From a virus: a DNA stretch of 60,409 bases. The notes under the pieces were generated by a model, which worked only from the letters and a program-made list of their open reading frames with translations, was not told where the DNA came from and ran no database searches. Of this stretch, positions 27,261 to 44,387 are shown piece by piece. The stretch spans positions 1 to 60,409 of IMG/VR virus record IMGVR_UViG_3300044514_000014; one strand, given 5' to 3'. Positions within the stretch are counted from its first letter, which is position 1. Each line of letters begins with the position of its first letter. The translations under genes and the position numbers were made by a program.

Positions 27261-27268
27261 GAAACAAC

Positions 27269-29040: not shown

Positions 29041-29225
29041 TGGCGGTAACTGATTGCGGTTTTCAGTCCGATGGGTTCCAAAATGATGGCTTCCAGGTGT
29101 GCGTTACCGGGGAGGACGCAGCTGGCTGGCTTCTCATGCACGCGCCGGTGCGCCGCCGACCTCTCCCGGATGACGACGAAGATGAATTACTCGCCTGGTA
29201 CTTCCTTGAGGTGATGGATGACTAA
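29040..29225 (+). CDS. Hypothetical acidic protein (GTG start)
   Basis: GTG overlaps the upstream TAG. GFQ(S/N)DGFQ repeat. Confidence 0.4.
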   Translation: MAVTDCGFQSDGFQNDGFQVCVTGEDAAGWLLMHAPVRRRPLPDDDEDELLAWYFLEVMDD

Positions 29226-29985: not shown

Positions 29986-30180
29986 ATGACCCCTGACGAA
30001 ATCCGAAGGATGTACAAGCATTTTATAAATCTGCTTGCGAAGATAACTGAAAAGTATTATACGGGCGTTCAAAAAAACTCAGATGGCACATTTACCCATA
30101 CATGGGATTTTTCTAAGGCAGAAGATGAAATCGACCTGCCTGCCGAGCGGCTGGAGCTTCTAGAAAGCAAGGACGAGTGA
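29986..30180 (+). CDS. Hypothetical protein
   Basis: ORF that is GTGA-coupled to the SDR gene. Confidence 0.45.
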   Translation: MTPDEIRRMYKHFINLLAKITEKYYTGVQKNSDGTFTHTWDFSKAEDEIDLPAERLELLESKDE

Positions 30181-30869
30181 TCGCCCTTGTCACAGGCGGC
30201 TCACGCGGCATCGGCGCGGCGTGCGTCCGGGCGTTGAAGGACGCGGGGCATACTGTCGCGGTCGTGGCGCGGGGGAAAGAATCGCCGGAATGTGATTTGT
30301 ATATTCAAGCAGACTTGTCGAAAGAGGGCCGTTCTCGTATTATTCACAAAGTTATCGCGGAACTAGGCGGGCTGGATATTCTCGTCAACAATGCGGGGTG
30401 CCAGTATCACGCCCCTGTTGTGGGCTACGAACCCTTTAGATGGGATTATCAGATTGAGGTAATGCTAACCGCCCCGTTCCACTTATCGAGAGCGGCGGCT
30501 ATTCACATGCTCACCCACGGCGGCGGGCATATCGTCAACATCCTGTCTACGTCTGCCTTCCAGGGAGCGCGCAATATATCCGGCTACGTAGCCGCGAAGC
30601 ACGGGCTGCTCGGCCTCACGCGGGCGATGGCAATCGAGCTTGCGCCGCTGATACACGTCAACGCTATTGCACCCGGACTCGTGGACACGGCCATGACCGC
30701 CTCGTACATCCCCTTACAGAGGCGCGAACTGCTGGAGAGCATCACGCCCGCGGGCAGGTTCGGCAAGCCAGATGAGATCGCTGGGGCGCTGATGTACTTA
30801 ATTCAAAGCGAGTTTGTGTATGGTCAAACCATCGTGGTCGATGGAGGATGGCTGGCAAAGAATGGCTAA
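30177..30869 (+). CDS. Short-chain dehydrogenase/reductase (FabG-like ketoreductase)
   Basis: TGGSRGIG, NNAG, YVAAKHG (YxxxK), IHVNAIAPG. Confidence 0.9.
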   Translation: MIALVTGGSRGIGAACVRALKDAGHTVAVVARGKESPECDLYIQADLSKEGRSRIIHKVIAELGGLDILVNNAGCQYHAPVVGYEPFRWDYQIEVMLTAPFHLSRAAAIHMLTHGGGHIVNILSTSAFQGARNISGYVAAKHGLLGLTRAMAIELAPLIHVNAIAPGLVDTAMTASYIPLQRRELLESITPAGRFGKPDEIAGALMYLIQSEFVYGQTIVVDGGWLAKNG

Positions 30870-31086
30870 ACTAATCGGCGGGCCTCTACATAATCAGATT
30901 ATTGAGATTCACGGTATGCAGTCTGAAAAATTTATAATTCCAGTTTTCCCCAATGACCGCACACCCAAACAATGTGTACGCCACATGAATAAAGCGGTGT
31001 ACAAGCGTACCAGAATTGTGAGGGGGGGGGAAATTGTATACAGGTTTATTTATGGATATTACGATATTAGGTATTTGTATGGCTAA
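30862..31086 (+). CDS. Hypothetical protein containing a G9 homopolymer tract
   Basis: ATG 30862 overlaps the end of the SDR gene. G9 run at 31022-31030. Confidence 0.4.
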   Translation: MAKLIGGPLHNQIIEIHGMQSEKFIIPVFPNDRTPKQCVRHMNKAVYKRTRIVRGGEIVYRFIYGYYDIRYLYG

Positions 31087-32083
31087 AATTATCGAAGCTA
31101 AAGACCTGCGCGGCGAGCGGCGGGAACGTCTCATAGACGCGGTTCCCCTGCCCGCGCCGTGGACGATGTTCATTGACTGCGGGAATCCGTGTAACGCCCG
31201 ATGCGTCTATTGTCCGACAGGTGACACAGAATTACTCCGCAAGATCGGGCGCAAGAATGTATTGATGTCCTGGGAATTGTTTACTAAAGTAGTAGGTGAT
31301 ATAAAAGCCTTTCCGCGACGACTTAAGCGCGTGAACAGCTATAAAGACGGAGAACCTCTTATCCACCCCCGTTTTACCGACATGATGCGCTATCTCAAAG
31401 ACGCCGATGTCACCGAACAGATATGGACGAAAACGAATGGATTGGCACTCAAGCCAGAGATAAACGCCCGTCTCGTCACTTGCGGCTTGGATATGATTGG
31501 CGTATCAGTCCAGCACGTACACGCGCAAGGCTTCTATGATATCGCCCGCGTGCGGATTGACTATGAGGAATACCGCGCCAACGTGCTAGACCTGTACCAG
31601 CGGAGCCGGGATACCGGCGTGAAAATCAGTACCAAAATCGCCGACGTGGGATTTAGCGACGCGGACAAACAAAAGTTTCTTGATGACTTTAGCGACCGCT
31701 GCGATTTCATCGCGATAGAAGGTTTGCATGGTTGGTCTGCCAGCGATGTCAAAGATTGGCGATTGGGAACAGATAATAGTTTCGACGGCAATCTGCGAAC
31801 CAATAAAATCGCCTGTCCATTGGTGTTGTACATGCTGACGGTAAATAGCAACGGCAATATTTCAATATGCAATGATGATGCCTTCCATTGGCACAAGATC
31901 GGCAACGCGAACAATGAAACCCTGATGGATATATGGCACGGGAATAGGTTACGGGAATTTCGACTAATGCACCTTACTGGACGCAAGCATGAAAACCCGG
32001 CTTGCTCTACGTGTGATTATGTTAAAGTTTTACCCGATAGCATTGACAGCGACCGCGAAGAGTATGCAAGGCGATTGAGATGA
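31079..32083 (+). CDS. Radical SAM enzyme with a SPASM/twitch-like C-terminal Cys cluster
   Basis: CNARCVYCP (CxxxCxxC). C-terminus CPLV...ICNDD...NPACSTCDY. Confidence 0.8.
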   Translation: MAKIIEAKDLRGERRERLIDAVPLPAPWTMFIDCGNPCNARCVYCPTGDTELLRKIGRKNVLMSWELFTKVVGDIKAFPRRLKRVNSYKDGEPLIHPRFTDMMRYLKDADVTEQIWTKTNGLALKPEINARLVTCGLDMIGVSVQHVHAQGFYDIARVRIDYEEYRANVLDLYQRSRDTGVKISTKIADVGFSDADKQKFLDDFSDRCDFIAIEGLHGWSASDVKDWRLGTDNSFDGNLRTNKIACPLVLYMLTVNSNGNISICNDDAFHWHKIGNANNETLMDIWHGNRLREFRLMHLTGRKHENPACSTCDYVKVLPDSIDSDREEYARRLR

Positions 32084-32166
32084 TGTATAATACAGTGAGA
32101 CTATATAAATGCTCCTGCGACGTGTTAGCGTCCAGGAGCGTGACCAAAGTACATGGAGGTACTTCG

Positions 32167-32400
32167 ATGTCCAGAATAATACCATTAACACGGGGGAAAG
32201 CGGCGTTAGTCGATGACGCCGACTATGAATATCTAAATCAATTCAAATGGCATTGTAATACAGGCTACGCCTACCGATCGCTACTAAGGGGTAATCGTGG
32301 ACATATAGCCATGCACCGTGAACTTATGGGCGACCCTCAAGGCATGGAGGCTGCAAAGTATTACGGAGAATTTGCGCGAGTAGAGAGGATAAGGAAATGA
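32167..32400 (+). CDS. HNH-type homing endonuclease remnant (catalytic core deleted)
   Basis: N-terminus LTRGKAALVDDADYEYLNQFKWH..GYAYR..MHRELMG and C-terminus AAKYYGEFARV match the two ends of phage HNH/AP2-type endonucleases. The HNH (DHxNGxxLDNRxxNLR) segment is absent. Confidence 0.55.
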   Translation: MSRIIPLTRGKAALVDDADYEYLNQFKWHCNTGYAYRSLLRGNRGHIAMHRELMGDPQGMEAAKYYGEFARVERIRK

Positions 32401-32993
32401 AAAAGGTTATTTCTCTATTCAAGAGAGACTATAAAGGTAATCATCAAGTGTTTGATGAAATTGTTCCCGGCGCTGAATGGGTTGTGAGCGGCGAAGGCAT
32501 CGCAACTATAAAGATTGACGGGACATCCTGTCTTGTTCGTGATGGCTTTTTATTCAAGCGTTATGACGCAAAGAAGGGGCGCACGCCGCCTGCCGGATTT
32601 GAACCAGCGCAAGACCCCGACCCCATTACAGGACATTGGCCGGGGTGGGTGCCTGTTACAGACAGAAAAGAGGATAATTACCATCGCGAAGCGTTTGAGA
32701 ATTGCAAAAACCTTCCAAATGGTACTTATGAGCTAATAGGAGAAAAGATACAACGCAACCCGTACAACATAAGCGGGCATGTCTTAGTTCTTCACGGCGA
32801 ATGGCGTTTTAAGAACGACCCGCCCCGAACTTTTGATGAGTTAAAGGCGTGGTTTGAAACAAATGAAAAGTTTGAGGGGATTGTATGGCATCGCGCAGAC
32901 GGTGAAATGGTGAAAATCAAGCGGCGTGATTTTGGGCTGGCTTGGCCGCCAGCGGTTGTAGTTGCATCGCGAAACATTCGCAGAAAAGGTTGA
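32397..32993 (+). CDS. Nucleotidyltransferase of the ATP-dependent RNA/DNA ligase type (KxDG)
   Basis: IATIKIDGTSCLV (motif I KxDG), YELIGEKIQ, VLHG..., KIKRRDF (motif V-like). Confidence 0.5.
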   Translation: MKKVISLFKRDYKGNHQVFDEIVPGAEWVVSGEGIATIKIDGTSCLVRDGFLFKRYDAKKGRTPPAGFEPAQDPDPITGHWPGWVPVTDRKEDNYHREAFENCKNLPNGTYELIGEKIQRNPYNISGHVLVLHGEWRFKNDPPRTFDELKAWFETNEKFEGIVWHRADGEMVKIKRRDFGLAWPPAVVVASRNIRRKG

Positions 32994-32996
32994 AAG

Positions 32997-33191
32997 ATGG
33001 ATAAAAATCCGATGTTTGAGGCGTACGCAAAAGAAAAAGAGGGAGAATACAAAAACAACGCGATTTCAATCGCCCACGGCATGAAGATGCAATACGATGC
33101 TTTTGTTGAAGAGGGATTTACACACGAACAGGCGCTATCTTTGGTTAACTCGATAGTAGCGACCTTTATACAAAACGCATCAAGGAAATGA
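32997..33191 (+). CDS. Hypothetical protein
   Basis: ORF on the coding strand. Confidence 0.45.
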   Translation: MDKNPMFEAYAKEKEGEYKNNAISIAHGMKMQYDAFVEEGFTHEQALSLVNSIVATFIQNASRK

Positions 33192-33207
33192 CGGACAAGG
33201 AAGTAAT

Positions 33208-34239
33208 ATGAGACCCTGCCCCGTTTGTGAGAACGAAGAATTAATGATTAACGCTGGGCGCACCGAAGTGTTCCGCATGGCTTACCGCATCCCGGACGGC
33301 TGGCCGCTGCCGTCTGAGATCGTCTGGTTTACCTGCGACGCTTGCGGGATGTTTTTTGGCGACGGCGATTTCAATCAGGCCATGCTCAACGAATACTATA
33401 CCAAGTATTACGGCTACGGCGTCAACAACCCAACCAACATCGAGCGGCTAAAAATGGACGCAGTAATGATCAGTGGCCTGGCGAAGCATGAGAGGGAGGC
33501 CGTCATCGTGGACTTCGGCGGTAATGGTGACGATGGCAGGAGCATCATCGTTGATTCGTTGCACAGCAGGGGATATGTCAACGCCGAGTCGGTGGGCGCG
33601 GGCGAGGCCCTCCCCTACCCCTCTACTATCATCTACGCCTCACACGTCGTTGAGCATGTATACGACCTGCCTGAAACAATGAAGAGGATCAGCGGCGCGC
33701 TTGCGCCTGACGGTCTGCTTATCATCGATGGGCCGGATGCGACGGGATTATTGCAACGCTGGAAAATGCCGATCCTGGATTTCAATACGAAGCACATCAA
33801 CCATTTCACGCTGAGAAATTATCTTGATTTGGGACACAGGTACGGCTTTGAATTGGTTGACGTGCGGAAGTACGAGATGGAGCACGCACCCGCATACCAG
33901 CTGCATTTCAGGAGGCTTGACGTGGCGCGGGCGTCCATGAAGCATGTAACGGAAAATATATCCGTCCGCGTGGATAGGATGCGAACGCTTGCGGGGCTGC
34001 CGCTCAACGTGTGGGGAATGGGGGATATTACGTGGCATCTGCTGTCTCAGGTGGATCTCAATATTCTGGATTACATTGATAACGACCCCGCCATGCGCGG
34101 GGCGACGTATAGGGGTAAGCCGATATTGGAGCGTCCGACAAACGACAAGCCGATACTGATAATGAGTCAAGGCCAGCGGCAGCGGCTGATTGAGAATATA
34201 CGAAAGGCTGGGATTGATAATCCCTTGATAGAAACGTAA
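33208..34239 (+). CDS. SAM-dependent methyltransferase with an N-terminal Cys4 ribbon (NDP-hexose C-methyltransferase-like architecture)
   Basis: CPVC...CDAC; VIVDFGGNGDDG (motif I); a C-terminal extra domain as in TylCIII-type enzymes (from memory). Confidence 0.6.
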   Translation: MRPCPVCENEELMINAGRTEVFRMAYRIPDGWPLPSEIVWFTCDACGMFFGDGDFNQAMLNEYYTKYYGYGVNNPTNIERLKMDAVMISGLAKHEREAVIVDFGGNGDDGRSIIVDSLHSRGYVNAESVGAGEALPYPSTIIYASHVVEHVYDLPETMKRISGALAPDGLLIIDGPDATGLLQRWKMPILDFNTKHINHFTLRNYLDLGHRYGFELVDVRKYEMEHAPAYQLHFRRLDVARASMKHVTENISVRVDRMRTLAGLPLNVWGMGDITWHLLSQVDLNILDYIDNDPAMRGATYRGKPILERPTNDKPILIMSQGQRQRLIENIRKAGIDNPLIET

Positions 34240-34754
34240 TGAGAGTAGCAGATGCTATCTTTGAACGACTGAAAAGCGAAGTTGACACTGTTTTTTTCTT
34301 GCCCGGCGGTGGCTCCGGGCCGCTGGTGGATGCGCTTGGCGCGTCGGGATTGCGCGCCGTGTGCTGTCTGCACGAACAGGGAGCCGGGTTTGCAGCGGTC
34401 GGGTATGCACAATATCACGGTTTCGGCGTGTGCCTTGTGACGAGCGGGCCGGGCGTGACTAACGCCATGACCCCCTGCCTTGCTGCGTGGGTGGATAGCG
34501 TCGCTTGCCTGTTCATATCAGGGCAGGTCATGGTCAAGTGGCTGGCTCTGGATGGGATGCGCTCGCGCGGAACGCAGGAGGGGCCGACAATTGCGATGGT
34601 GAGACCGATAACAAAGTATGTGGCGCAACCACAAAGCGCGGCGGAGGCAATGGCGGAACTTGAAAAATGTATCACCATAGCAAAGGAAGGGCGAGCAGGC
34701 GGAACGTGGCTCGATATTCCGCAAGATATACAAGGGGCAAGCTATGATGTATAA
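34239..34754 (+). CDS. TPP-dependent enzyme, N-terminal (Pyr) domain fragment (ALS/YerE-like)
   Basis: VFFLPGGG..HEQGAGFAAVGYA..VCLVTSGPGVTNAMT..A..DSVACLFISGQV..WLDIPQDIQ matches the TPP_enzyme_N pattern. Confidence 0.85.
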   Translation: MRVADAIFERLKSEVDTVFFLPGGGSGPLVDALGASGLRAVCCLHEQGAGFAAVGYAQYHGFGVCLVTSGPGVTNAMTPCLAAWVDSVACLFISGQVMVKWLALDGMRSRGTQEGPTIAMVRPITKYVAQPQSAAEAMAELEKCITIAKEGRAGGTWLDIPQDIQGASYDV

Positions 34755-34833
34755 TAGAACACATAATCTAAACGTTGCTCCCGCGATGCGGATACATCCG
34801 GGAGCGTGGCCGAACCTAAACAGGAGATTCGAC

Positions 34834-35730
34834 ATGAGCATTGTAACAGAAAACACACCGGGGGAAATGAAACAGTTTGGGGTTTACTCTATAATCTTCC
34901 ATTCTAGGCGCGGTGATATGGTTTATATCGGCTCGACTGCTCAAGATTTTGAGCAGCGTCTATATGAGCATCTGTCTTATGCAAGAAGAAACAAACACGG
35001 TAATAAATACTTTCAAAACCTCTGGAATAAATATCAAACCTTCGATTTCAAGATTGTTGAAATCTGCTTAGACCGGGAGACGGTAGCCGTTCGAGAACAG
35101 TGGCATATAGAGAAAATTGACAGATCACAATTAATCAATAATCGCCCTGCTAAAAAGTCTAACAGGTTTCAAGTTATCATTTCAGAAGAAACGCGCCGAA
35201 AGCAGTCGGATGCAGCAAAAATAAGGGCGAGTAATCCTGCTGAACGCGAAAGACTGCGGTCTATAAGACTTTCTCAATGTCCAATATCAGATGAAGCCAG
35301 ACAGAAAATCTCCGAGGCGTCTAAAAGGTATATGAACTCTCCCGAGGCGAAAGAGAAATATTCGCTATTAATGAAGGGAAGGGACAGGGGTGAAGAGTTT
35401 AGGGAAAAATTACGAAAGGCAAACTCTGGCAAAGCTCCCGCCCCTCAGACAATTGAGGCGGTTCGTCGTGCTCATATTGGGAAAAAGGCGTCGGATGAAA
35501 CCAGAAGGAAGATGTCTGAATCTCACAAAAGAAGATTTGCAGAAAATCCCGAATTGCTCGCCAAGGCCTTATGTAATATCAGGGGGCGTGTGATAACCGA
35601 CGAAACAAGAGCGAAACTGAGAAAGGCGAGCACGGGCAAGCGCCATACAGAAGAGACGAAAGAAAAATTGCGTCAAGCTACACTGGCTCACTACACAAAG
35701 AAGAGAGAAGAAGAATGTATCGACCGTTGA
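34834..35730 (+). CDS. GIY-YIG homing endonuclease with NUMOD3-type repeats
   Basis: GVYSI..VYIGST..R..H...E..N is a GIY-YIG core. At least four (S/T)(D/E)ETRxK repeats. Low GC. ATG 34834 follows AGGAGA. Confidence 0.85.
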   Translation: MSIVTENTPGEMKQFGVYSIIFHSRRGDMVYIGSTAQDFEQRLYEHLSYARRNKHGNKYFQNLWNKYQTFDFKIVEICLDRETVAVREQWHIEKIDRSQLINNRPAKKSNRFQVIISEETRRKQSDAAKIRASNPAERERLRSIRLSQCPISDEARQKISEASKRYMNSPEAKEKYSLLMKGRDRGEEFREKLRKANSGKAPAPQTIEAVRRAHIGKKASDETRRKMSESHKRRFAENPELLAKALCNIRGRVITDETRAKLRKASTGKRHTEETKEKLRQATLAHYTKKREEECIDR

Positions 35731-36851
35731 TTTTGCTTGGGAACGGGGTCAGAAATAACCCAAAATTGATTGAGCATTTATGTAGCCTAAATATACCTAT
35801 CGCTACAACATGGATGGGGGCGGATTTATTGCCTGAGGATTGTCCTGTATGGATTGGCAGACCTGGTTTGTTTGGACAAAGATCGTGCAACATCGCCCAG
35901 CAGAAAGCGACGCATCTCTACTGCTTCGGTGCTCGCTTGGACGGCGAACAAGTCGCCTATGACTATGACCGCTTCGCGCCGAATGCGGAGATATATATTT
36001 ATGATATAGACCCCGCAGAGGCGCAGAAGTTCCCGAAGCATTACCACGTTTCGCAGACCCTTGACTCCAGAGACGACATTGATTTTCTTCCGGCTCTTGA
36101 CCCGCCTCATCGTGACTGGCTCAACTGGTGCAAGGCACTCTATCACCGATTCCGGCCTGAATTGGACGGAGGACAGGAGGCGGGGGACGGAGGTGACGAA
36201 TATTTCGTTGACCCATTCACGTTCACGCGGCTCCTGCATGATCACAGCCAGTCTGATGACGTATTCGCTATCGGCTCATCAGGCAACGCGCCCACGGTGT
36301 TCTTCCAGGCGTACAAGGTCAAGCAGGGGCAGCGGATCTCCAACGTCTGCACGATAGGCGCGATGGGCGCGGACATCCCCATGGCCATGGGCTCTGCGCT
36401 GGCGTCCGGGCGGCGAACCATCTGCGTGACGGGCGACGGCGGCTTTGCGATGAACGCGCAGGAACTTGAAACGATACGCAGGCTGAGACTGCCGATCATC
36501 TTTTTTGTGATGTCCAACGGCGGGTATAACTCGATCCGCGTTGGTCAGCTTGCGCGCTTCGGGCGTGTGACAGGCGCAAACCCCGCAAGCGGGCTTATCC
36601 TGCCGAGCATTGAAGCGATTGCGGAGGCGTACCGTCTCTGCTACATGCCCCTGCACGGGCGAGACCTGCCGAACTTCACCCGATGCTTCGGCGTTGCGCC
36701 GATGGTCGTGGAAGTGTTCGTAGATCCCGAATGGCAGCAATTGCCGCGCGTGATGGCAAGTGGAAACCCAATCAAGACGGATAACATGGAGAATATGTAT
36801 CCATATTTACCTGAGGATGAATTGAAAGAGATTATGGAGTGGGGCGGGTAG
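35715..36851 (+). CDS. TPP-dependent enzyme, central + C-terminal (PP) domain fragment (ALS/YerE-like)
   Basis: RPLILLGNG..; GAMGADIPMAMGSA..VTGDGGFAMNAQELETI..LPIIFFVMSNGGY is the TPP-binding GDG-N motif. Confidence 0.85.
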   Translation: MYRPLILLGNGVRNNPKLIEHLCSLNIPIATTWMGADLLPEDCPVWIGRPGLFGQRSCNIAQQKATHLYCFGARLDGEQVAYDYDRFAPNAEIYIYDIDPAEAQKFPKHYHVSQTLDSRDDIDFLPALDPPHRDWLNWCKALYHRFRPELDGGQEAGDGGDEYFVDPFTFTRLLHDHSQSDDVFAIGSSGNAPTVFFQAYKVKQGQRISNVCTIGAMGADIPMAMGSALASGRRTICVTGDGGFAMNAQELETIRRLRLPIIFFVMSNGGYNSIRVGQLARFGRVTGANPASGLILPSIEAIAEAYRLCYMPLHGRDLPNFTRCFGVAPMVVEVFVDPEWQQLPRVMASGNPIKTDNMENMYPYLPEDELKEIMEWGG

Positions 36852-36876
36852 TCGCCACGCTCTAGAAAGGTTTGAA

Positions 36877-37050
36877 ATGGCACTAACAATAGTTTTGGGT
36901 TTGATGATTTTCTTGCCTTTGGTTGTTGGTAGTTACATGCACTATGCTTTGGGCATTACATCGGGAATGGATATTGCCGCGACAATTTTGTTGTATGTCG
37001 TGGAAATGGCATCGTTTTATTCAGTGATGGTAAAGCGCCCTCAAAAGTAA
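36877..37050 (+). CDS. 57-aa two-TM membrane protein
   Basis: Below the track cutoff. Hydrophobic. RBS AAAGG. Confidence 0.4.
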   Translation: MALTIVLGLMIFLPLVVGSYMHYALGITSGMDIAATILLYVVEMASFYSVMVKRPQK

Positions 37051-37156
37051 CTATTATATTTTAGCCTTACGCGTTGTCGTAGGCAACAAAAAACTAAAAT
37101 GTATCAACCTCAGTGTATCGTTGTGTACCTGTTACTTGATAAAGGTAACGGTATAT

Positions 37157-38290
37157 ATGATGACAGTCCCTATTTCCGGGCAAGTGACCGGCAAAGAGGA
37201 AGCAGATAACGTGATGGAAGTTGCGAACTCGCAGAGTTACGGCGGCTTCATCTGGACCAATCGCTTCGAGCGCGGCTTCGCCCGCTTCATGGGTGCTCGT
37301 GAGGCGATCCTGTGTAACAGCGGCTCATCCGCAAACCTGATCGCATTGGCGGCGCTGGAACTGCCGAAGGGCTCGGAAGTCATTACCACCGCGGTGAACT
37401 TCCCTACGACGGTAAACTGCATTATTCAGCTTGGTCTAGTGCCGGTGTTCGTGGATAGTGATCCGAAAACATTGAACGCCAGCCGAATAGAGGATATTTA
37501 TGAGGCGTGGCCGACAAAAGTAAGAGCAATAATAATGGCTCATGCTCTTGGAAATCCGGTTTATATTCCGCCCTCTGATTTCCCGGTTATCGAAGATTGC
37601 TGTGATGCTGTAGGTTCTACGATCAACGGGCAGATGGTTGGTCGTCGCGGCATAATATCCACCGTCTCATTCTACCCGGCGCATCACATGACGATGGGCG
37701 AAGGTGGTGCGGTGCTGACCGATAGCCCGCAGTTGAGGAAGATTATCGAGAGCTACCGCGATTGGGGCCGAGACTGCTGGTGCGAGCCGGGGAAGGATAA
37801 TACATGCGGGACACGGTTTGATAAGGAGTACGATCATAAATACACATACTCTAGAATTGGTTACAACCTCAAAGTTTCCGACTTCCAGGCTGCTGTGGGG
37901 GTTGCTCAGTTGGACAGACTGGCTGGTTTCGTCGAAAAGCGGAGAGACAATTGGAAATATTTACGCGCTGGGTTGGATGGATTACCGCTTGATTTTATTG
38001 AGGCGACGCCAAACAGCGATCCGTCATGGTTTGGTTTTGCATTTCTCAGTCCAGAACGGAATAAACTGGCGAAATATCTGGATAGTAAAGGGGTTGGGTG
38101 CCGTCCTGTCATGGGTGGAAATTTACTCAGACAACCTGCCTATAAAGATATAGAGCACCGCGTCATTGGTAATCTGGACGGGGCTGATAGAATTCATCGA
38201 GAGGGGCTTTGGGTAGGAGTATTCCCTGGCATCACCGAAGAAATGAGAGAGTACCAGGTTGAGACTATCAGGGCATATTTCAATGGATAA
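37157..38290 (+). CDS. rfbH: CDP-4-keto-6-deoxy-D-glucose 3-dehydrase (E1; RfbH/DdhC/AscC family)
   Basis: NSGSSANL; SFYPAHHMTMGEGGAV (His in place of the PLP lysine); RDWGRDCWCEPGKDNTCGTRF Cys cluster. These are hallmarks of E1 as I recall them. Confidence 0.85.
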   Translation: MMTVPISGQVTGKEEADNVMEVANSQSYGGFIWTNRFERGFARFMGAREAILCNSGSSANLIALAALELPKGSEVITTAVNFPTTVNCIIQLGLVPVFVDSDPKTLNASRIEDIYEAWPTKVRAIIMAHALGNPVYIPPSDFPVIEDCCDAVGSTINGQMVGRRGIISTVSFYPAHHMTMGEGGAVLTDSPQLRKIIESYRDWGRDCWCEPGKDNTCGTRFDKEYDHKYTYSRIGYNLKVSDFQAAVGVAQLDRLAGFVEKRRDNWKYLRAGLDGLPLDFIEATPNSDPSWFGFAFLSPERNKLAKYLDSKGVGCRPVMGGNLLRQPAYKDIEHRVIGNLDGADRIHREGLWVGVFPGITEEMREYQVETIRAYFNG

Positions 38291-38954
38291 AGTTTTGGTC
38301 ACAGGCGGAACGGGCTTTGTCGGTCATTGGTTAAGGCAGACTAAGCCCGATAAATTTATTCATTATTGGCTTAGTCACGCCGATTACGCACTAACAAATT
38401 GGCATACTGTCAAATGGGATTACATTGTTCACCTTGCGAATATTTCTCCCGCGCTAGTTATTGAATGCGCCAAACAAACAAACGCCCGCCTGCTATACTG
38501 CTCCTCCGGCGCGGTCTACGACCAGGACACGGAGTACGCCAATGACAAACGGCGCTGGGAGCGGGAATGTCTCGACAGCGGCGTGGATGTAGTGATTGCA
38601 AGGCTGTTCACTTTCTACGGCGAGCGCCTGGATGATGGCAAGGCTTACACTCAATTCACCCGTGCGGCGAAGGCAGGCGAGCCGTTACGAGTCTGGGGCG
38701 ACGGGTCTTGTATCCGCTCATACATGTATGGCGCAGAACTTGGCCGCTGGCTATGGGCGATCCTGCTACGGGGCAAGAGCGGGCAGGCGTATGACGTAGG
38801 GAGTACGGAGCCGGTCACGATGCTGGAACTGGCGCGCAGGGTCATCCGCCATTATAAGAGCAATTCGGGGATCATTATGGAGCCAGACCACCCCGTCCCG
38901 ATGCCGTACTACATGCCGCGCGACACGGCGAAAACGCGGAGGTTATTAGAATGA
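38283..38954 (+). CDS. Short NAD-dependent epimerase/dehydratase-family (extended SDR) protein
   Basis: VLVTGGTGFVGHWL Rossmann motif; YANDKR (YxxxK-like). Confidence 0.7.
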   Translation: MDKVLVTGGTGFVGHWLRQTKPDKFIHYWLSHADYALTNWHTVKWDYIVHLANISPALVIECAKQTNARLLYCSSGAVYDQDTEYANDKRRWERECLDSGVDVVIARLFTFYGERLDDGKAYTQFTRAAKAGEPLRVWGDGSCIRSYMYGAELGRWLWAILLRGKSGQAYDVGSTEPVTMLELARRVIRHYKSNSGIIMEPDHPVPMPYYMPRDTAKTRRLLE

Positions 38955-39367
38955 TAGACTACGACTATAATGAACATGCTAGGCGATTTATGGAAGAGTC
39001 TAAGAGACTGCGGCAAGAATATGACCGCAAGGAAAAGCGCCGTATGTTGTGGCTTGGAAAATTCGCTTTTCCAAAAGTTGACACCAAGAAAACGAAATTG
39101 CTGTATGTTCCTGCTGACTATCACAGATACTATCTCCCCATCATGGAGCCGCTATCGGTTTATGATTTTAGGAATAACCCGCCTGAGTATTCTGAGTTAA
39201 AGCGCGCTGAGATAGAACTAAAAAAGTGGGGTTATAAAGGTAAACGCTGGCGGGCAATTATCCGATTTGGATACTACGAAAGAGACGACATTTTAATTGT
39301 CAACAAAGAGACGTTTGTTTATCAGAAAAGGTATACGGTTTCGGACGGTTCTGTTTGGTGGTTATAA
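38951..39367 (+). CDS. Hypothetical protein
   Basis: ATGA-coupled ORF. Confidence 0.5.
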   Translation: MIDYDYNEHARRFMEESKRLRQEYDRKEKRRMLWLGKFAFPKVDTKKTKLLYVPADYHRYYLPIMEPLSVYDFRNNPPEYSELKRAEIELKKWGYKGKRWRAIIRFGYYERDDILIVNKETFVYQKRYTVSDGSVWWL

Positions 39368-39370
39368 GGC

Positions 39371-39487
39371 ATGACCTTTATTTATCTATGCCCTGTCGCC
39401 TGGCGCATTTACGACCGTCACCGCTGGCGGGCGCTGGACAAGCATCGCCGCGAATGCAAAGAGTGTTGGAGAAAGGAAGCAGGATGA
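39371..39487 (+). CDS. 38-aa basic Cys-containing peptide
   Basis: Below the track cutoff. ATGA overlap with 39484. Weak support. Confidence 0.25.
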   Translation: MTFIYLCPVAWRIYDRHRWRALDKHRRECKECWRKEAG

Positions 39488-39684
39488 CCGTCACCATCAA
39501 AATCAAAAACGTTGCTGAGGTAAAAAGGATGCTTGAGGAAACGCGTCTGAAACTCGCCAACCAATTTAGCGTTCCTTATGAGCACTTGTATCCAAATGCG
39601 AAAATTATCGATTTGACCGCCCGCGATATTCTGCCTGAGTTACCAGCGGGCGGAGAAGAGCCGCCGAAGGAGGTTGACAGATGA
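39484..39684 (+). CDS. Hypothetical protein
   Basis: ATG 39484 follows GAAAGGAAG, inside the longer track ORF 39355... Confidence 0.45.
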   Translation: MTVTIKIKNVAEVKRMLEETRLKLANQFSVPYEHLYPNAKIIDLTARDILPELPAGGEEPPKEVDR

Positions 39685-39938
39685 GCGACGATATTGAATT
39701 TGTAAGCATGGAAGATATTACCAACGGGAAAAGAAACCTGAAGATGATGGGACTTGACAAATATCCCCTGCCAGACGATATGAGGGCGTATATGTCAACA
39801 GTAAGGATTGACGGAAAAATCTATAAATCCATTTATTGGTTTACTATCGAACTTGTAAACGACAGCGAATTTGAAAGGATTTCAAAGCTGGTTATAGTAA
39901 ATCAGGCAAGGCGGCGATTTACTGCGCCTGTCTCTTGA
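39681..39938 (+). CDS. Hypothetical protein
   Basis: ATGA-coupled ORF. Confidence 0.5.
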   Translation: MSDDIEFVSMEDITNGKRNLKMMGLDKYPLPDDMRAYMSTVRIDGKIYKSIYWFTIELVNDSEFERISKLVIVNQARRRFTAPVS

Positions 39939-39962
39939 CATGTAGAATATTTGTGCTATACT
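39935..39962 (+). promoter_or_regulatory. Promoter TTGACA-16-(TGc)TATACT upstream of the capsid gene
   Basis: TTGACA at 39935-39940 and an extended -10 TGCTATACT ending at 39962. Confidence 0.6.
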
Positions 39963-40048
39963 TTCTGGCGGGCAGAAATGCCGAAGTAAGTGCTGGCTAA
40001 GTATTCATTGTAGATCTAGCCAGACCTACTAATATAACCTTACGTGAT

Positions 40049-40096
40049 AGCCGGTTGTCCTTGCTCCGAAATGGAGCCAGGGCAACCGGCTTTTTG
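40049..40096 (+). terminator. Intrinsic terminator between the promoter and the capsid gene
   Basis: AGCCGGTTG..GCTCC-GAAAT-GGAGC..CAACCGGCT followed by T5. It ends 23 nt before ATG 40119. Confidence 0.75.
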
Positions 40097-40118
40097 CGTT
40101 ATATACGCAGAGGGTGAA

Positions 40119-42203
40119 ATGCCAAACGTTTCAGAATACGAAAATCAAGATGACTGGATGGGCGCATGTATGCCAGCCATGATGGAAGAGGGGAAAGAGC
40201 AAGACGAAGCCGCCGCCGCGTGCGCGTCCATGTGGGGAGAGAAAAAGTCATTCTACGATATGTCGATAGAAGATGCAGTCAAGCACTTCCTGAAAGTCGG
40301 CGCGCGGCACACGCGTAAAGAAGTGGATGCGTTCCAGACCGTACACGACATTATGGTAGATAACGGCGCTGAGTGTGAAATGCCAGAGAAGGAAATGTAC
40401 GGGGGTAACATGCCGATGATGGAGGGGAAATCGCTGGATGAGGAATACATCTACCCCGGCGATGCAGTCAAAGCCGTGTCACTGGACGGCGGCGCGGTCA
40501 AATTAGGGGGTTATCTGATCAGTTTCAGGGACTCTGAGAACACAGACCTGGCGGGCGATTACTTCACAAAAAAAGCCAACTACGGCGATGCGACACAGTC
40601 TGACGTATGGTTCAACCACCGTTTGCCGATCCGCATCAAGAAGCACAATGTTGAAGTGAAATATACCGAGCCGCTATCCAACAAAGCATCACTCACCATT
40701 GATGATGTAGGGGTATTTGCTGAGGTGGTGATCGAAGCGCGCAATGAATACGAAAAAACAATCGCCGAATTGGGGCTTGCGGGGAAATTAGCCTGGTCAT
40801 CTGGCACAGCTTCGCACCTTGTAGACCGCAAAGCGATCAAGAATGGCGTGTGGGAAATCACGCGCTGGCCTCTTGGGCTGGATGCGTCGCTCACCCCCAC
40901 TCCGGCAGAATACCGCAAAACCAACCAGATACTACCGATCAAATCGTTACTAACTTCCCATACGGCGTTGCCCGTTGAGGAGGATAACCAAACCAAACCT
41001 ACCAATCAACCTATTACCACACAAAGGGAGAACATCATGGAAGACGAAATCAAATACGCCGTAGATAAGGCGGTCGCCGACGCTCTGCAAGAGCGCGAAG
41101 CGAAATCCCAGGCGGAAGCGCAGAAGGCTTCAGAATTGAAGGCTGCGGAAGACGCCGGATACAAGAAGGCCGTTGAGGAATTGAAGGAGCACGGGCCGCA
41201 GACGTTCTACCACTCCACCGAAAAGGCCGACGATGACAATGACGGTATCGGCGCTTTCAAGTCCTGGCTCAAGACTGGACAGGAAAATCAAGGGCTCATC
41301 CGCCCTGACTCGTCCTTCGACAATATCAAAGCGGGCAAAGCTGCCTGGAACATCACAACCGGAGCTTCCGGTGGGTTCTTGGTTCCTGACCCCCTGTATA
41401 ACCAGATTATCGCCAAGCGTGACATCATGTCGTGGGCGCGGCAGGTTCCTTGCACGTTCTTGACGACCCCCTCCGATCACCTGTTAGTCCCGCGTGAGAA
41501 TACCAGTCTGACTGATTTCGTTCTGACGGCTGAGGCTGGAAACTACGACGAGAATGAGGGCACGGTATCACAGAAAGACCTCATCTTGTACAAGTACACC
41601 AAACTCACGAAGATGAACGAAGAATTTCTTATGTACAACGGTACGAATTGGGAAGCCTGGTTCACCAACGCACTGGGACGCGCAGTTGCGAACACTGAAA
41701 ATACTGTTTTCACCACAGGCACTGGCACGTCACAACCTGAGGGTATTGTGACCGGCGCGACGGTTGCAAATACGACCGCCACGACCGACATCATTCTACC
41801 GTCCGAACTGTCTGGCCTTATCGGTTATCTCGGAGGCGGATACAACGTCCCGAGTGAGGCCGCCATGCTCATGGCGAACGTGACTAAGTGGTATCTGAAA
41901 GGCAGTGGTGGAACGTCCGTGGTTCCATTTGCTTATGTCCAGACCCCGCAGGATGGCGATTTCTTCGGCTACAAGGCCGTCATCGACGATGACCTTGAAC
42001 CATATACCACGGCTTCGGCCAAGTGTGTCGTGTTCGGCAACTTCAGCTACTACGCAGTGGTGGAAAAGCCGGGCATGATCATACAGCGCAATCCTTACCT
42101 GTACATGGCGACCGGGCAGATCGGCATCTTTGCCAGCATCTTCCGCGGTGGCGGAGTGCTTCAGAGCGAAGCATTCTACTATCTGACCAACAAGTCCAGC
42201 TAA
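40119..42203 (+). CDS. Prohead protease/scaffold-like N-terminal region fused to an HK97-fold major capsid protein
   Basis: C-terminal half: GASGGFLVPDP...TGTGTSQPEGIVTG is typical of HK97-type MCPs. The central region is a Glu/Lys coiled coil. ATG 40119 follows GAGGGTG. Confidence 0.75.
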   Translation: MPNVSEYENQDDWMGACMPAMMEEGKEQDEAAAACASMWGEKKSFYDMSIEDAVKHFLKVGARHTRKEVDAFQTVHDIMVDNGAECEMPEKEMYGGNMPMMEGKSLDEEYIYPGDAVKAVSLDGGAVKLGGYLISFRDSENTDLAGDYFTKKANYGDATQSDVWFNHRLPIRIKKHNVEVKYTEPLSNKASLTIDDVGVFAEVVIEARNEYEKTIAELGLAGKLAWSSGTASHLVDRKAIKNGVWEITRWPLGLDASLTPTPAEYRKTNQILPIKSLLTSHTALPVEEDNQTKPTNQPITTQRENIMEDEIKYAVDKAVADALQEREAKSQAEAQKASELKAAEDAGYKKAVEELKEHGPQTFYHSTEKADDDNDGIGAFKSWLKTGQENQGLIRPDSSFDNIKAGKAAWNITTGASGGFLVPDPLYNQIIAKRDIMSWARQVPCTFLTTPSDHLLVPRENTSLTDFVLTAEAGNYDENEGTVSQKDLILYKYTKLTKMNEEFLMYNGTNWEAWFTNALGRAVANTENTVFTTGTGTSQPEGIVTGATVANTTATTDIILPSELSGLIGYLGGGYNVPSEAAMLMANVTKWYLKGSGGTSVVPFAYVQTPQDGDFFGYKAVIDDDLEPYTTASAKCVVFGNFSYYAVVEKPGMIIQRNPYLYMATGQIGIFASIFRGGGVLQSEAFYYLTNKSS

Positions 42204-42216
42204 AAGAGGTGATGAT

Positions 42217-42654
42217 ATGTCACGCAACAAAAACCCTGATACCCAGAAAGCGATGGTTGCAGTAGCAGCCAGCGCCGGGATCGTTGGTGCGCTGGTCGGA
42301 ACAAAGGTCGATGCGACCGGGTACAGCCGCGCACACTTCATTTTCAACTTTGGTAATGGAGCCGCCACAACCGCCGCACTTTCGGCGGGTATTGGTCCCT
42401 GGCAAGCGTCCACGTCCGGCGCAACTTTCGCCGCTGTTGCAAATGCGTCCCTTGCTGCCGTGACCTCCGGCGTTCTATCGAGCACCGCAGTCACTCTGGA
42501 AGTGGATATACCTATTTCAGCAGGTACGCCCTGGCTGCAAATCTCTGGTGGATCTCTGCTCTCGACAGCCGTCCCGCATTCGTGCGTGGTCGAACTGTAC
42601 AACGGCATCAACCGCCCGCCAACAGCATCCAGTATCGAAGTTGTAACCGTATAA
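42217..42654 (+). CDS. Capsid-associated (decoration-like) protein, hypothetical
   Basis: Ala/Gly/Ser/Thr-rich 145-aa ORF directly after the MCP. Confidence 0.4.
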   Translation: MSRNKNPDTQKAMVAVAASAGIVGALVGTKVDATGYSRAHFIFNFGNGAATTAALSAGIGPWQASTSGATFAAVANASLAAVTSGVLSSTAVTLEVDIPISAGTPWLQISGGSLLSTAVPHSCVVELYNGINRPPTASSIEVVTV

Positions 42655-42679
42655 CTACTGATAAGGGGGAGGCGAGCAA

Positions 42680-43462
42680 TTGTCTCCCCCGGAAAGTGCC
42701 GAGTTAATGCACATATTCCATTGGGTTCCCTCATCTGGTGCGCCGCCTCCGTGGTCGTGCGTCCACTCGTGGGTAAACCTGCTTTTGCCCGAGGGCGCAA
42801 AGCGGACATTTAGACAGAGCGGCGCGGGCTCAGTTCGCGTCATATGGAACGATATTGTGCGGGAGTTTCTCGCAACTGACGCCGAATGGATGTTCTCGAC
42901 TCACCACGACGTTGTATTTGTCCCTGAAACACTCACGCGCCTCTTGTCCTGGGGTAAGCCACTTGTGTCGGCGCTCGTGTTCATGCGACATAACCCGGTC
43001 GTCCCGCAGATTTGGAAATCCTACGACGGCAATGATGGCAATTACGTGATGCGGATAAACGATACCCGGCAGTGGTTCTACGATCACAAAGAGTGGATCA
43101 AGTTTGGGCCGTTCGTAATGGATCCCCGCCCAGACGACGCGCTTATTCCGGTCGGCTTTACCGCGACCGCCTGCACGCTGATACACCGCACCGTGTTTGA
43201 TGACATCCGCGCCAAAGTACCCGACCAGGGAGATGGCCTGTGGTTCGTCTGCGACAACGAAACTTCGGGCGGGGGGGAAGATCGGCGCTTCTACGAGTAC
43301 GCGCGAGACGTTGGTTATGAAGCGTTTGTAGACCGCTCTTGTATTGCTGGTCATGTGGCTGGCGACATTCCAACATCCAGCGCCGATTTCATCGCCTGGG
43401 ATAGCGTGAGCGATTTTCACAACACAGGAGAGCCGGTATTAAATGACAACCAAACAGGTTGA
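42680..43462 (+). CDS. GT2-like glycosyltransferase
   Basis: TDAEWMFSTHHDVVF (DxD-like region) and GGGEDRRFYEYARDVGYEAFVDRSCIAGH (EDxxF...G...vD....H) fit the GT-A pattern. TTG start follows GGGGGAGG. Confidence 0.6.
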   Translation: MSPPESAELMHIFHWVPSSGAPPPWSCVHSWVNLLLPEGAKRTFRQSGAGSVRVIWNDIVREFLATDAEWMFSTHHDVVFVPETLTRLLSWGKPLVSALVFMRHNPVVPQIWKSYDGNDGNYVMRINDTRQWFYDHKEWIKFGPFVMDPRPDDALIPVGFTATACTLIHRTVFDDIRAKVPDQGDGLWFVCDNETSGGGEDRRFYEYARDVGYEAFVDRSCIAGHVAGDIPTSSADFIAWDSVSDFHNTGEPVLNDNQTG

Positions 43463-44387
43463 AACCGCAGTTGTAGCAGGAACAGTCACGGGGACGGGGA
43501 ATGCTACCGTCACTATAACCGCGCTCGGCATGGCGAACACGCCGAAGGCCGTTTCCGTCGCCGTCACGTCAGCAGATACCGCCTCCATTGTTGGCGGGCT
43601 GATCCGTACGGCGCTTGCATTCGATACGGATGTAGCGGCGCTGTTTTTGATATCTGGCTCCGGCGCAAATGTAGTCCTGACGAAACATATCGCCGTCGCC
43701 AATGATGACACGCTGAATATCGCCATTGCTAACGGTACTTGTACCGGCCTGACCGCCGCACCAACGTCCACGAACACGACCGCCGGAACGGGGCTAACAA
43801 ACGGCTACATCACGCTGGCGCAACTCAAATCCTCCGACGTGCTGAACTTCTCGAATACGACCCATGACGAGATTTTGGAAACCATCATCGAAGCCGTATC
43901 TCGCCTGATAGACAACAAATGCGCCCGGCGCTTCTTTTGCGCATCCGAAACACGTTACTACACCGCGGACGAAGGCGACCTTGTCTTTGTGGATGACATC
44001 TCGACATCCAGCGGGCTGACGCTCGTGACAGATGAGGACGGGGATAGGACGTACGAGATTACATGGGCGACCACAGATTATGACCTGACATCGTTCAATA
44101 GCACGCTGGACGGCTGGCCGTACCAGATGATCGAAACTACGCCCGAGGGCTTGTACTCATTCCCCGGAACAAAGAAGGGCGTAAAAGTCACTGCTTCATT
44201 CGGTTGGGCGGCGGTCCCGAAAACCATTGTGCTGGCTTGCATCCTGCAAAGCAACCGAGAGTACAAGAGATTCAACACGGCGCTTGGACAGGCCGGGGCG
44301 TCTGCCGTAGGCACGATCACACTAACCATCCCGGCGCTTGACCCCGACGTTGAAAAACTCTTGTGTCCCTACGTGAGGATTACGTGA
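43443..44387 (+). CDS. Head-tail connector (gp6-like) with an N-terminal Thr/Ala-rich extension
   Basis: The C-terminal half (YITLAQLKS..HDEILETIIEAVSRLID) resembles the gp6-type head-tail connector/adaptor family. Confidence 0.5.
   Translation: MTTKQVETAVVAGTVTGTGNATVTITALGMANTPKAVSVAVTSADTASIVGGLIRTALAFDTDVAALFLISGSGANVVLTKHIAVANDDTLNIAIANGTCTGLTAAPTSTNTTAGTGLTNGYITLAQLKSSDVLNFSNTTHDEILETIIEAVSRLIDNKCARRFFCASETRYYTADEGDLVFVDDISTSSGLTLVTDEDGDRTYEITWATTDYDLTSFNSTLDGWPYQMIETTPEGLYSFPGTKKGVKVTASFGWAAVPKTIVLACILQSNREYKRFNTALGQAGASAVGTITLTIPALDPDVEKLLCPYVRIT

Follow-up and report, generated by a model that had tools for sequence, protein, structure and literature searches.

Why should a tailed phage carry, among its head genes, a row of enzymes that look as if they build a deoxysugar, and what would that sugar be for? 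The question is raised by IMG/VR record IMGVR_UViG_3300044514_000014, of which positions 1 to 60,409 were analysed; the window referred to below is this whole 60,409-nt stretch, which makes up all or a large part of a tailed-phage genome. A block of sugar-enzyme genes lies on the + strand at 30177-38954, with the portal gene on one side and the capsid gene on the other, and a gene for a glycosyltransferase (GT)-like protein lies beyond the capsid gene. The identities of the enzymes in the block are well supported. Judged from sequence comparison and predicted structure, there is about an even chance that the block is a nucleotide-sugar tailoring pathway of the phage and that the GT-A-fold enzyme moves its product to a virion protein.

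A preliminary description of the locus had recognized a FabG-like short-chain dehydrogenase/reductase (SDR) at 30177, a radical S-adenosylmethionine (SAM)/SPASM enzyme with CNARCVYC at 31079, a Cys4-ribbon SAM methyltransferase at 33208, an E1-type dehydrase at 37157 with His for the pyridoxal phosphate (PLP) lysine and with Fe-S Cys, and a short extended SDR at 38283. All the open reading frames (ORFs) that it listed exist, on the + strand and with the coordinates it gave, and its family calls for the sugar block were confirmed by family searches: adh_short and phrog_3142 for the first, Radical_SAM and SPASM for the second, Methyltransf_23 together with N-terminal Cys pairs for the third, the RfbH cut-off and aligned motifs for the fourth, and the Epimerase family with its motifs kept for the last.

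The dehydrase is, to judge from its sequence, a bona fide E1/RfbH 3-dehydrase. It scores 456.3 bits against the RfbH equivalog of NCBIfam (NF011936, cut-off 423), and the Yersinia E1 structures 3BCX and 3BB8 match residues 3-375 at 3.5e-106 with approximately 50% identity. The protein carries SFYPAHHMTMGEGG and RDWGRDCWCEPGKDNTC. Its SFYPAHH aligns with the SFYPAHH of wild-type E1, with His in place of the PLP lysine (the 3BB8 variant has K at the position of this His), and its EDCCD and CWCEPGKDNTC also align with E1, so that a C-X-C-X7-C is present. The sequence fits C-X57-C-X1-C-X7-C, which we take to be the [2Fe-2S] ligand motif of E1. The active-site His is kept in 90 of the 92 viral homologues scanned. 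In the phage group (loci of relatives are given L numbers throughout) the SFYPAHH His, EDCCD and C-X-C-X7-C are retained in all copies examined, save for regular-expression misses in L089 (His motif) and in L114, L118 and L120 (EDCCD). An ordinary Lys-containing DegT aminotransferase, the alternative against which this ORF was to be checked, fails because the His and the Fe-S Cys are kept and the RfbH cut-off is passed. Outside phages, the closest E1 proteins share only about 52% identity and are scattered across many phyla.

In the window, and in the phage relatives that have both genes, E1 adjoins the gene of a thiamine diphosphate (ThDP) enzyme. The catalytic motifs are LHEQG in the N-terminal ORF and TGDGGFAMN...SNGG in the C-terminal one. 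The best match of the C-terminal half in the PDB is JanthE (8RPH), a YerE-like ketone-accepting ThDP lyase, at 6e-42 and 147.6 bits. Acetolactate synthases (ALS) reach at most 88 bits (9e-24 or worse; E. coli ALS I, 87.7), and 5AHK, presumably PpYerE, reaches 85.2 bits. Against the NCBIfam ALS equivalogs the ThDP ORFs score a small fraction of the cut-offs. The halves are therefore not those of a housekeeping acetolactate synthase, as the preliminary description had allowed they might be, and a YerE/JanthE-like enzyme, a candidate ketone-accepting carboligase, is well supported by these comparisons. Of the best 80 bacterial loci, 24 have a ThDP homologue no more than 10 kb from E1, as in known YerE-type clusters.

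That this enzyme comes in two pieces had been seen before, and both pieces are present; a GIY-YIG endonuclease gene lying between them had been missed. The two subunits (171 and 378 aa) are unlike the single polypeptide of about 560-620 aa found in YerE-like lyases, and the break corresponds to about positions 165/202 of the ALS profile, within the linker that follows the Pyr domain. The endonuclease gene of the window sits exactly at the junction and overlaps both neighbours. Four close relatives have no endonuclease and still have the ThDP enzyme as two ORFs, the stop of ORF1 overlapping the start of ORF2 (GATGTATAA; L002 8340-8440, L007 8850-8950, L009 8825-8925, L087 2180-2270). The more distant L089 has an unsplit 530-aa ThDP gene (1519-3111). 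An earlier invasion by an endonuclease may have left the split behind as a scar. ThDP enzymes made of a Pyr chain and a separate PP chain exist, as in sulfopyruvate decarboxylase ComDE and the split transketolases, and for this reason, and because all catalytic motifs are intact, a working heteromer is plausible.

The methyltransferase gives only generic Pfam matches (Methyltransf_23, Methyltransf_11 and Methyltransf_12) and none in NCBIfam, and the PDB matches of its sequence to sugar C-3 methyltransferases are weak (6e-5). In the Pfam search the zinc-binding and C-terminal C-methyltransferase domains, which we take to be hallmarks of sugar C-methyltransferases, were not matched. An AlphaFold2 (AF2) model built on 32 homologues has a mean predicted local distance difference test (pLDDT) score of 90.9, and the top 18 Foldseek matches to it are all KijD1, TcaB9 or MtmC (6e-15 to 1e-12, over about 420 columns). 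The next methyltransferase class follows at 4e-7, with the core domain alone aligned. H150 and H196 align to two His of KijD1, presumably equivalent to H181 and H225 of TcaB9, and are invariant in sets of 11 and 32 homologues. The Cys pairs C4/C7 and C43/C46 are conserved, and a Lys stands where KijD1 has Glu before the catalytic His. The predicted fold is thus well supported as that of the nucleoside diphosphate (NDP)-4-ketosugar C-3 methyltransferases.

Three further enzymes complete the full block. The best PDB match of the radical SAM (rSAM) protein is BtrN, a 2-deoxy-scyllo-inosamine dehydrogenase, at 1.7e-6 and over the C-terminal domain alone. C246, C264, C309 and C312 align one-to-one with the four auxiliary-cluster Cys of BtrN residues 167-241, which argues for a single-cluster twitch domain rather than a two-cluster SPASM peptide maturase; these Cys and C38, C42 and C45 (CX3CX2C) are invariant in 18 homologues. 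All NCBIfam matches are far below their cut-offs. The protein is a candidate sugar dehydrogenase. A role as a defence gene was considered and rejected, PADLOC giving only a weak generic viperin-core match (39 bits). The classical SDR is 59-73% conserved in relatives, where it adjoins the rSAM gene and is present only together with it; in L009 a GIY-YIG-like insert alone lies between the two. The compact extended SDR adjoins E1 in the phage relatives examined, and its best PDB matches are SDRs of the UXS/RmlB type. It is a candidate ketoreductase for the C-4 keto group or for an acyl side chain. In L009 the GIY-YIG-like ORF stands at another spot of the cassette (5829-6128) than the mobile genes of the window, and mobile endonuclease genes seem to hit the block repeatedly.

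In the window the rSAM and methyltransferase genes are held apart by an insert specific to this genome. Its 106-aa ORF (32080-32400) has no family hit and looks by eye like a degenerate HNH/AP2-type endonuclease; an RNA ligase gene (32397-32993; RLIG1 1.5e-22, phrog_14301 2e-72) and a 64-aa ORF (32997-33191) follow. In relatives the two flanking genes are about 0-240 nt apart, with nothing that matches the insert, which is probably outside the sugar pathway. This insertion of an RNA ligase and two small unassigned ORFs, together with the homing endonuclease between the ThDP ORFs, could mean that the pathway is decaying or non-functional in the window genome. We regard decay as very improbable. 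The motifs are all intact (HEQ Glu, GDGG...N, E1 His and Cys, methyltransferase His, rSAM Cys), and the inserts are intergenic, touching the extreme start or stop ends of the flanking ORFs alone. The endonuclease-free split, with its overlapping stop and start codons, is moreover conserved in several diverged relatives, which argues for a working two-subunit ThDP enzyme.

The GT-like ORF is known by its fold rather than by a sequence family. It had been called GT2-like with a start at 42680; its location holds and a GT-A fold is predicted, but no sequence family matches it (none in Pfam, NCBIfam or PHROG, even at E<=10), and the ATG at 42707 is the more probable start. None of 179 metagenomic homologues has a Pfam domain, and 2 of 120 are named 'GT2 family' by JGI. 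The invariant motifs are SxHxD, GGGEDR, DRS and a later His; S64-x-H66-x-D68 (after strand 3), E191-D192 and H216 are the invariant residues, with an HxD variant at the DXD position. The AF2 model (pLDDT 92.3; predicted template-modelling score, pTM, 0.90) has a Rossmann-like GT-A fold. Its Foldseek neighbours in the PDB are the LH3 GT domain, STIV A197, Mimivirus R699, COLGALT1, Mnn9, ppGalNAc-T2 and SpsA, with a Foldseek probability of 1.00 for LH3 GT, A197, R699, SpsA and ppGalNAc-T2; PBCV-1 proteins are also among its structural neighbours. In BFVD it matches phage proteins annotated as GT-A/GT2 (1e-15, TMq up to 0.68) and, lower in the list, the GTs of Gordonia phage Sixama and Mycobacterium phage Ardmore (gp87). 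The fold is closest to protein-glycosylating GT-A enzymes and viral GTs. These features support a glycosyltransferase-like protein, as modelled.

Coordinates of the features in and around the sugar block. PMP, pyridoxamine phosphate.
Feature	Coordinates	Strand	Basis or remark
Classical SDR, FabG/KduD-like	30177..30869	+	adh_short 1.4e-42; phrog_3142 FabG-like
Radical SAM enzyme, BtrN-type twitch domain, one auxiliary 4-Cys cluster	31079..32083	+	Radical_SAM and SPASM; CNARCVYC
Genome-specific insert: 106-aa ORF, RNA ligase, 64-aa ORF	32080..33191	+	no match in relatives
Three-domain SAM methyltransferase: Cys4 ribbon, class I methyltransferase domain, C-terminal Rossmann-like domain	33208..34239	+	Methyltransf_23
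ThDP enzyme N-terminal (Pyr) domain subunit, HEQ catalytic Glu	34239..34754	+	TPP_enzyme_N 7e-30; phrog_11199 positions 11-176
Free-standing GIY-YIG/NUMOD3 homing endonuclease gene	34744..35730	+	GIY-YIG 1.2e-8; NUMOD3 1.5e-10
ThDP enzyme middle and PP domain subunit, YerE/JanthE-like	35715..36851	+	TPP_enzyme_M, TPP_enzyme_C; GDGG...N
E1-type PMP/[2Fe-2S] NDP-4-keto-6-deoxyhexose 3-dehydrase, RfbH/DdhC/AscC family	37157..38290	+	NF011936; 3BCX/3BB8
Compact extended SDR, 223 aa	38283..38954	+	Epimerase 1.2e-17; GxxGxxG TGGTGFVG, YxxxK YANDK
Small ORFs (n=3), function not assigned by families	38951..39938	+	between cassette and capsid gene; no family hits
Major capsid protein, HK97-type C-terminal domain, 719 aa	40044..42203	+	Phage_capsid 1e-27, residues 443-715; phrog_10
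Small Ala/Ser/Thr-rich head-module protein, 145 aa	42217..42654	+	no family hit; conserved directly after capsid gene
GT-A-fold glycosyltransferase-like protein	42707..43462	+	AF2 model; Foldseek PDB and BFVD
Head-tail adaptor, 115-aa Thr/Ala-rich N-terminal extension	43443..44387	+	phrog_442, residues 116-312

Three head proteins encoded near the GT could bear a glycan. The major capsid protein is a candidate acceptor. So is the small head protein, a possible decoration protein, homologues of which come after the capsid gene both in relatives that have the GT and in relatives that do not. The Thr/Ala-rich extension of the adaptor, whose gene forms the downstream border of the block, could be a glycosylation substrate; the adaptors of L094, L237 and L221 are about 200 aa long and have no extension. 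Tracking of the GT was tried as a guide to the acceptor and rejected: the small protein is present whether or not the GT is, and the adaptor extension is limited to the window's group, and no acceptor was singled out because neither tracks the presence of the GT. The phrog_10 match of the capsid protein reaches back to residue 319, and the first 319 residues, which have no Pfam hit, may represent a scaffold or protease-like domain fused to the capsid protein. A near-consensus sigma-70-like promoter (TTGACA-16-TG-TATACT, 11/12) lies at 39935-39962, some 80 nt before the capsid gene. Of the three small ORFs that precede the capsid gene, 39681-39938 is 40% conserved in L002.

The arrangement was followed in relatives, which were found by scanning IMG/VR with E1, with a GT alignment and with a capsid alignment, and then by tblastn of all window proteins. 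A scan with the single capsid sequence reached close relatives alone; the alignment-based scan also reached relatives without the GT. The order capsid, small protein, GT is found in at least 30 loci and holds down to about 40-50% protein identity; where the sequence extends further and an adaptor homologue could be recognized, the adaptor comes next after the GT. In full or reduced form, the cassette lies between portal and capsid in about nine lineages whose capsids are 47-94% identical. All six enzymes are present in the window group, L089/L212, L224, L009/L119/L225 and L007. The commonest reduced set, E1, SDR, methyltransferase and ThDP enzyme, is found in L101/L228, L103/L241 and the L114/L118 group, while L095/L231 lack the methyltransferase and L121/L232 lack E1. 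The cassette is absent despite the GT in L094, L113/L237, L110 and L093/L226, which have two to five short ORFs between portal and capsid, and relatives without the GT (L220, L236, L238, L239 and probably L240 and L243) have no cassette. The cassette is a variable module.

In informative loci the cassette was only seen in genomes that bear the GT: 9 lineages with the GT have it, as against 0 of 4-6 informative lineages without the GT (Fisher p = 0.03 to 0.008). The phages that have the GT and no cassette (L094, L226, L237, L110) would fit an arrangement in which the two are independent, the GT using an ordinary host nucleotide sugar and the cassette product passing to a host GT or into a small molecule. 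The promoter-like site between the two blocks, and the approximately 3.7 kb, including the capsid gene, that lie between cassette and GT, are consistent with this as well. Against independence stand the one-sided co-occurrence and the consideration that a pathway without a transferase of its own would have no outlet in the phage, and we consider such independence distinctly unlikely.

Beyond the phage group, about 50 further IMG/VR loci (L012-L080) have an E1-like gene, 37-40% identical to that of the window, and a nearby single-chain ThDP gene. The His and Cys of these E1-like proteins are kept, and the C-X-C...C spacing is longer in nine copies inspected. Examples are L030 (6269-8032 and 10001-11155) and L044, from the giant-virus metagenome-assembled genome (MAG) GVMAG-S-1035088-40. 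On sequence, the pairing of E1 with a YerE-like enzyme appears widespread in uncultivated viruses. The locus L125 (DATDRD010000639.1), a 23-kb contig of the same phage type with full synteny and an E1 77% identical, is binned in an Anaerolineales MAG; this is the sole hint of a host, and a weak one. One 80,305-bp contig (IMGVR_UViG_3300025030_000076, L207/L208) holds two diverged whole cassette-capsid-GT modules, their rSAM proteins 79% and 69% identical to that of the window, which suggests that two related phages were assembled into one chimeric or concatenated sequence.

Family scans of the window and of the relatives' unmatched ORFs found no cytidylyltransferase or other nucleotidyltransferase, no 4,6-dehydratase and no E3. 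The absence of cytidylyltransferase, 4,6-dehydratase and E3 had been noted for the window in the preliminary description, and it now extends to the relatives; dependence on host intermediates is therefore a fair reading. Neither in the window nor in the relatives does a dedicated E3 partner (AscD/DdhD) or an ORF of ferredoxin-reductase type lie beside E1, and SpnQ, for comparison, works with general reductases. The relatives' unmatched ORFs yielded only collagen-like, Mu-F-like, ferritin-like and SDR ORFs. A ferritin-like ORF in L095 (3322-3795) lies directly upstream of E1 and may bear on the iron supply of the Fe-S enzymes.

A pathway can be proposed from these identities. It would start from a host-made NDP-4-keto-6-deoxyhexose, most likely cytidine diphosphate (CDP)-4-keto-6-deoxy-D-glucose. 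E1 would remove the C-3 hydroxyl, with electrons from a host E3 or a ferredoxin/flavodoxin reductase, and the TcaB9-like methyltransferase would C-methylate beside the 4-keto group. The two-subunit YerE-like enzyme would then add the acyl carbanion of a 2-keto acid to C-4, giving a tertiary alcohol, and the compact extended SDR would reduce the remaining ketone. In the full cassette the BtrN-like rSAM dehydrogenase and the classical SDR may add oxidation and reduction, for example an epimerisation. The best reading of the product, given the enzyme families, would be a C-methyl, C-acyl branched 3,6-dideoxyhexose, which the GT-A enzyme would place on a virion (head) protein during head assembly, late in infection; the GT probably transfers the cassette sugar to virion proteins. 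We infer the order of the steps, the nucleotide carrier, the keto-acid donor, the role of the rSAM enzyme and classical SDR, and the acceptor. That the acceptor belongs to the virion we infer from gene position, conserved synteny and the co-occurrence of cassette and GT.

Several points weigh against this proposal. Because the cytidylyltransferase, the 4,6-dehydratase and E3 are not encoded, substrate and reductant must both come from the host. The ThDP gene is in two parts and, in the window, also interrupted by a homing endonuclease gene. The GT belongs to no sequence family and has HxD at the DXD position, and GT-A folds are also seen in nucleotidyltransferases and polysaccharide GTs. Given the promoter-like site, the cassette may be transcribed separately from the capsid/GT genes. 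The co-occurrence statistic comes from few and phylogenetically related, hence non-independent, lineages, and the GT does not need the cassette sugar, because four GT-bearing lineages lack the cassette.

The surroundings of the block bear on where the sugar would go. The large terminase gene (21656-22879) and the portal gene (23054-25009) lie upstream, neck and tail genes are also present, and the terminase, portal, capsid, adaptor and tail genes that flank the block are all on the + strand. Family scans also found genes, likewise on the + strand, for a DnaB helicase, a GH25 lysin and a DNA methylase and, in the head region, for a fibre-like protein and a beta-helix protein. The contig ends have no terminal direct repeat. 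At 0.48-0.56, the GC content of the block and its surroundings does not depart from the range seen in the remaining window, and there is therefore no compositional island at the block. A megablast search of 30000-44000 against 50,697 deposited phage records gave no match. The ORF at 29218-29916, previously labelled head-morphogenesis-like, has no family hit; identification as Mu-F-like was rejected, as it has no similarity to the Mu-F-like ORF upstream of the sugar genes in L103.

Some features of these surroundings stand apart from the block. Between the portal and the head genes, 27254-28645 encodes a protein with a right-handed beta-helix (Beta_helix, NosD), which matches a twin-arginine (TAT) signal weakly and below the cut-off (MNRRDFLKLSGAG...); an exported depolymerase-like protein is odd for a phage structural region. 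A second radical SAM protein (19915-20835, - strand; Radical_SAM 2e-9, phrog_13321 of unknown function), unrelated to the one in the cassette, is encoded in the replication region next to the DNA methylase gene (18750-19931). In the early/replication region a 206-nt direct repeat (13612-13817 and 18344-18549) is 90% identical over its two copies, 4.7 kb apart. The ORF 894-1820 encodes a pentapeptide-repeat protein with a C-terminal DUF5758, with 20 overlapping 15-nt-register repeats at 1109-1549.

The main rival to a virion destination is that the cassette serves as an auxiliary metabolic (moron-type) module for remodelling a surface glycan of the host, the GT acting on a host glycan or lipid-linked acceptor rather than on virion proteins. 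During infection or lysogeny the target would be O-antigen, capsule, S-layer or wall polysaccharide, and the effect would be to block superinfection or to release progeny from debris. Bacterial E1 and YerE-like pairs do occur in surface-polysaccharide clusters, for example those for yersiniose and erwiniose in lipopolysaccharide (LPS), and in cultured cyanomyophages large sugar clusters include homologues of the 3-dehydrase as well as GT11/GT25 genes, which we take to be of LPS-type GT families. The TAT-signal beta-helix protein and the fibre-like protein encoded in the head region fit a surface role too. The sugar genes, however, lie inside the late head operon and away from any lysogeny module, and no integrase was found among the ORFs scanned. 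The GT is small, with no transmembrane helix evident in its model, and its position between the capsid/small-protein genes and the adaptor gene is fixed in lineages with capsids about 47-50% identical to that of the window. Family scans of the window found no flippase, polymerase or lipid-carrier GT. With both sides considered, host-glycan remodelling seems rather unlikely.

Modification of the phage's own DNA is a further conceivable use. Phage GTs that add diverse glycans to DNA are known, so that the sugar could hypermodify bases, as in the T-even phages and the viruses with glycan-modified 5-hydroxymethylcytosine (5hmC) or 5-hydroxycytosine (5hC), and the window does have a DNA methylase and a second radical SAM enzyme elsewhere. 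Yet no hydroxymethylase, TET/5mYOX or thymidylate-synthase-like gene was found among the scanned ORFs, the cassette and GT are in the head module and not in the replication module, and the GT has GT-A enzymes that act on proteins and polysaccharides as its structural neighbours. Such a use is hardly credible.

Transfer to a virion protein remains the preferred reading. Extended to the relatives, it would mean that a widespread lineage of uncultivated tailed phages makes a doubly branched 3,6-dideoxyhexose from a host CDP-sugar and coats the head with it by means of the GT, a swappable cassette diversifying the surface glycan between related phages; this broader picture is put forward tentatively, as less likely than not. 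If true, this would make the cassette the first pathway for a branched-chain sugar to be found encoded by a phage, and the first in a bacteriophage that is dedicated to supplying the donor sugar of virion glycosylation, and the modular gain and loss of glycan-tailoring genes would be a route to diversity of the virion surface. It would also provide new enzymes for tertiary-alcohol and branched sugars, namely a two-subunit YerE-like carboligase, a compact SDR, a distant C-methyltransferase and a GT-A family. Should the product go to the host surface instead, this would still be the first YerE-type branched-sugar auxiliary pathway seen in phages.

The preliminary description had known of no multi-enzyme branched-deoxysugar pathway like this one within a phage structural module. 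Its claim of novelty has to be narrowed, since multi-gene deoxysugar clusters with 3-dehydrase homologues are annotated in cultured cyanomyophages and E1-like and ThDP pairs occur in dozens of other IMG/VR contigs; the combination of E1, a YerE-like enzyme and a C-methyltransferase in a head module, with a capsid-adjacent GT, is new. Searching the 50,697 deposited phage records by tblastn with the ThDP C-terminal half gave no YerE-like enzyme, only acetolactate-synthase-like matches of at most 30% identity, mostly unannotated fragments or bacterial records, and no paper that connects phages with YerE or an E1 3-dehydrase turned up in a literature search.

The closest known pathway is that of yersiniose A in Yersinia pseudotuberculosis O:VI (DdhA-D, YerE and a reductase), which shares with the phage cassette an E1, a YerE-like carboligase and a reductase. 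There the 4-keto group of a CDP-3,6-dideoxyhexose receives an acyl branch, as is proposed here, and the erwiniose and caryophyllose clusters are related YerE-like branched-sugar clusters. Unlike the yersiniose system, the phage cassette is without DdhA, DdhB and E3, its ThDP enzyme is split, it adds a TcaB9-type C-methyltransferase and a BtrN-like rSAM enzyme, and it lies in a head module rather than an O-antigen cluster. The methyltransferase has the same three domains and the same two catalytic His positions as TcaB9, KijD1 and MtmC (TylC3-type), whereas its sequence similarity to them is marginal (E about 6e-5) and it has Lys for the Glu of KijD1. For the gene in pieces, the split nrdA of Aeromonas phage Aeh1, divided by a homing endonuclease, is the nearest parallel: there too a free-standing GIY-YIG gene lies between enzyme halves that are each translated separately. 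The ThDP split differs in that it is also present in close relatives without the endonuclease, and L089 is unsplit.

Among phages, the cyanomyophages S-CAM7 and S-H68 resemble the window in having several nucleotide-sugar enzymes, 3-dehydrase homologues of the DegT family and GTs. Their 3-dehydrases are 30-31% identical to the window E1, their clusters lie outside the head module, the S-CAM7 gene stands beside a GDP-mannose 4,6-dehydratase gene (a ColD-like context), and tblastn found in them no YerE-like ThDP enzyme, unlike the window. For actinobacteriophages, GT genes, sometimes with a methyltransferase, have been tied to glycosylation of capsid or tail (Freeman et al. 2023, as cited in PMC12582341 and PMC13313380). 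Ardmore gp87 and the Gordonia phage GT are distant structural neighbours of the window GT. The phages of that study, in Cell Host Microbe, are reportedly Che8, Corndog and Myrna. To our knowledge the glycosylated actinobacteriophages use host nucleotide sugars and have no multi-step deoxysugar pathway of their own. They differ from the window phage also in that its host is probably of another phylum (the weak Anaerolineales hint) and its virion glycosylation is a prediction. Phage virion glycosylation has so far been tied to a few actinobacteriophages; it alters antibody recognition and is relevant to phage therapy.

Mimivirus and the chloroviruses synthesize their own nucleotide sugars and decorate capsid or fibre proteins with GT-A enzymes, and Mimivirus R699 and PBCV-1 proteins are structural neighbours of the window GT. 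Theirs are systems of eukaryotic viruses, with different sugars and much larger gene sets; the present proposal, if true, would extend autonomous glycosylation in the style of giant viruses to ordinary tailed phages.

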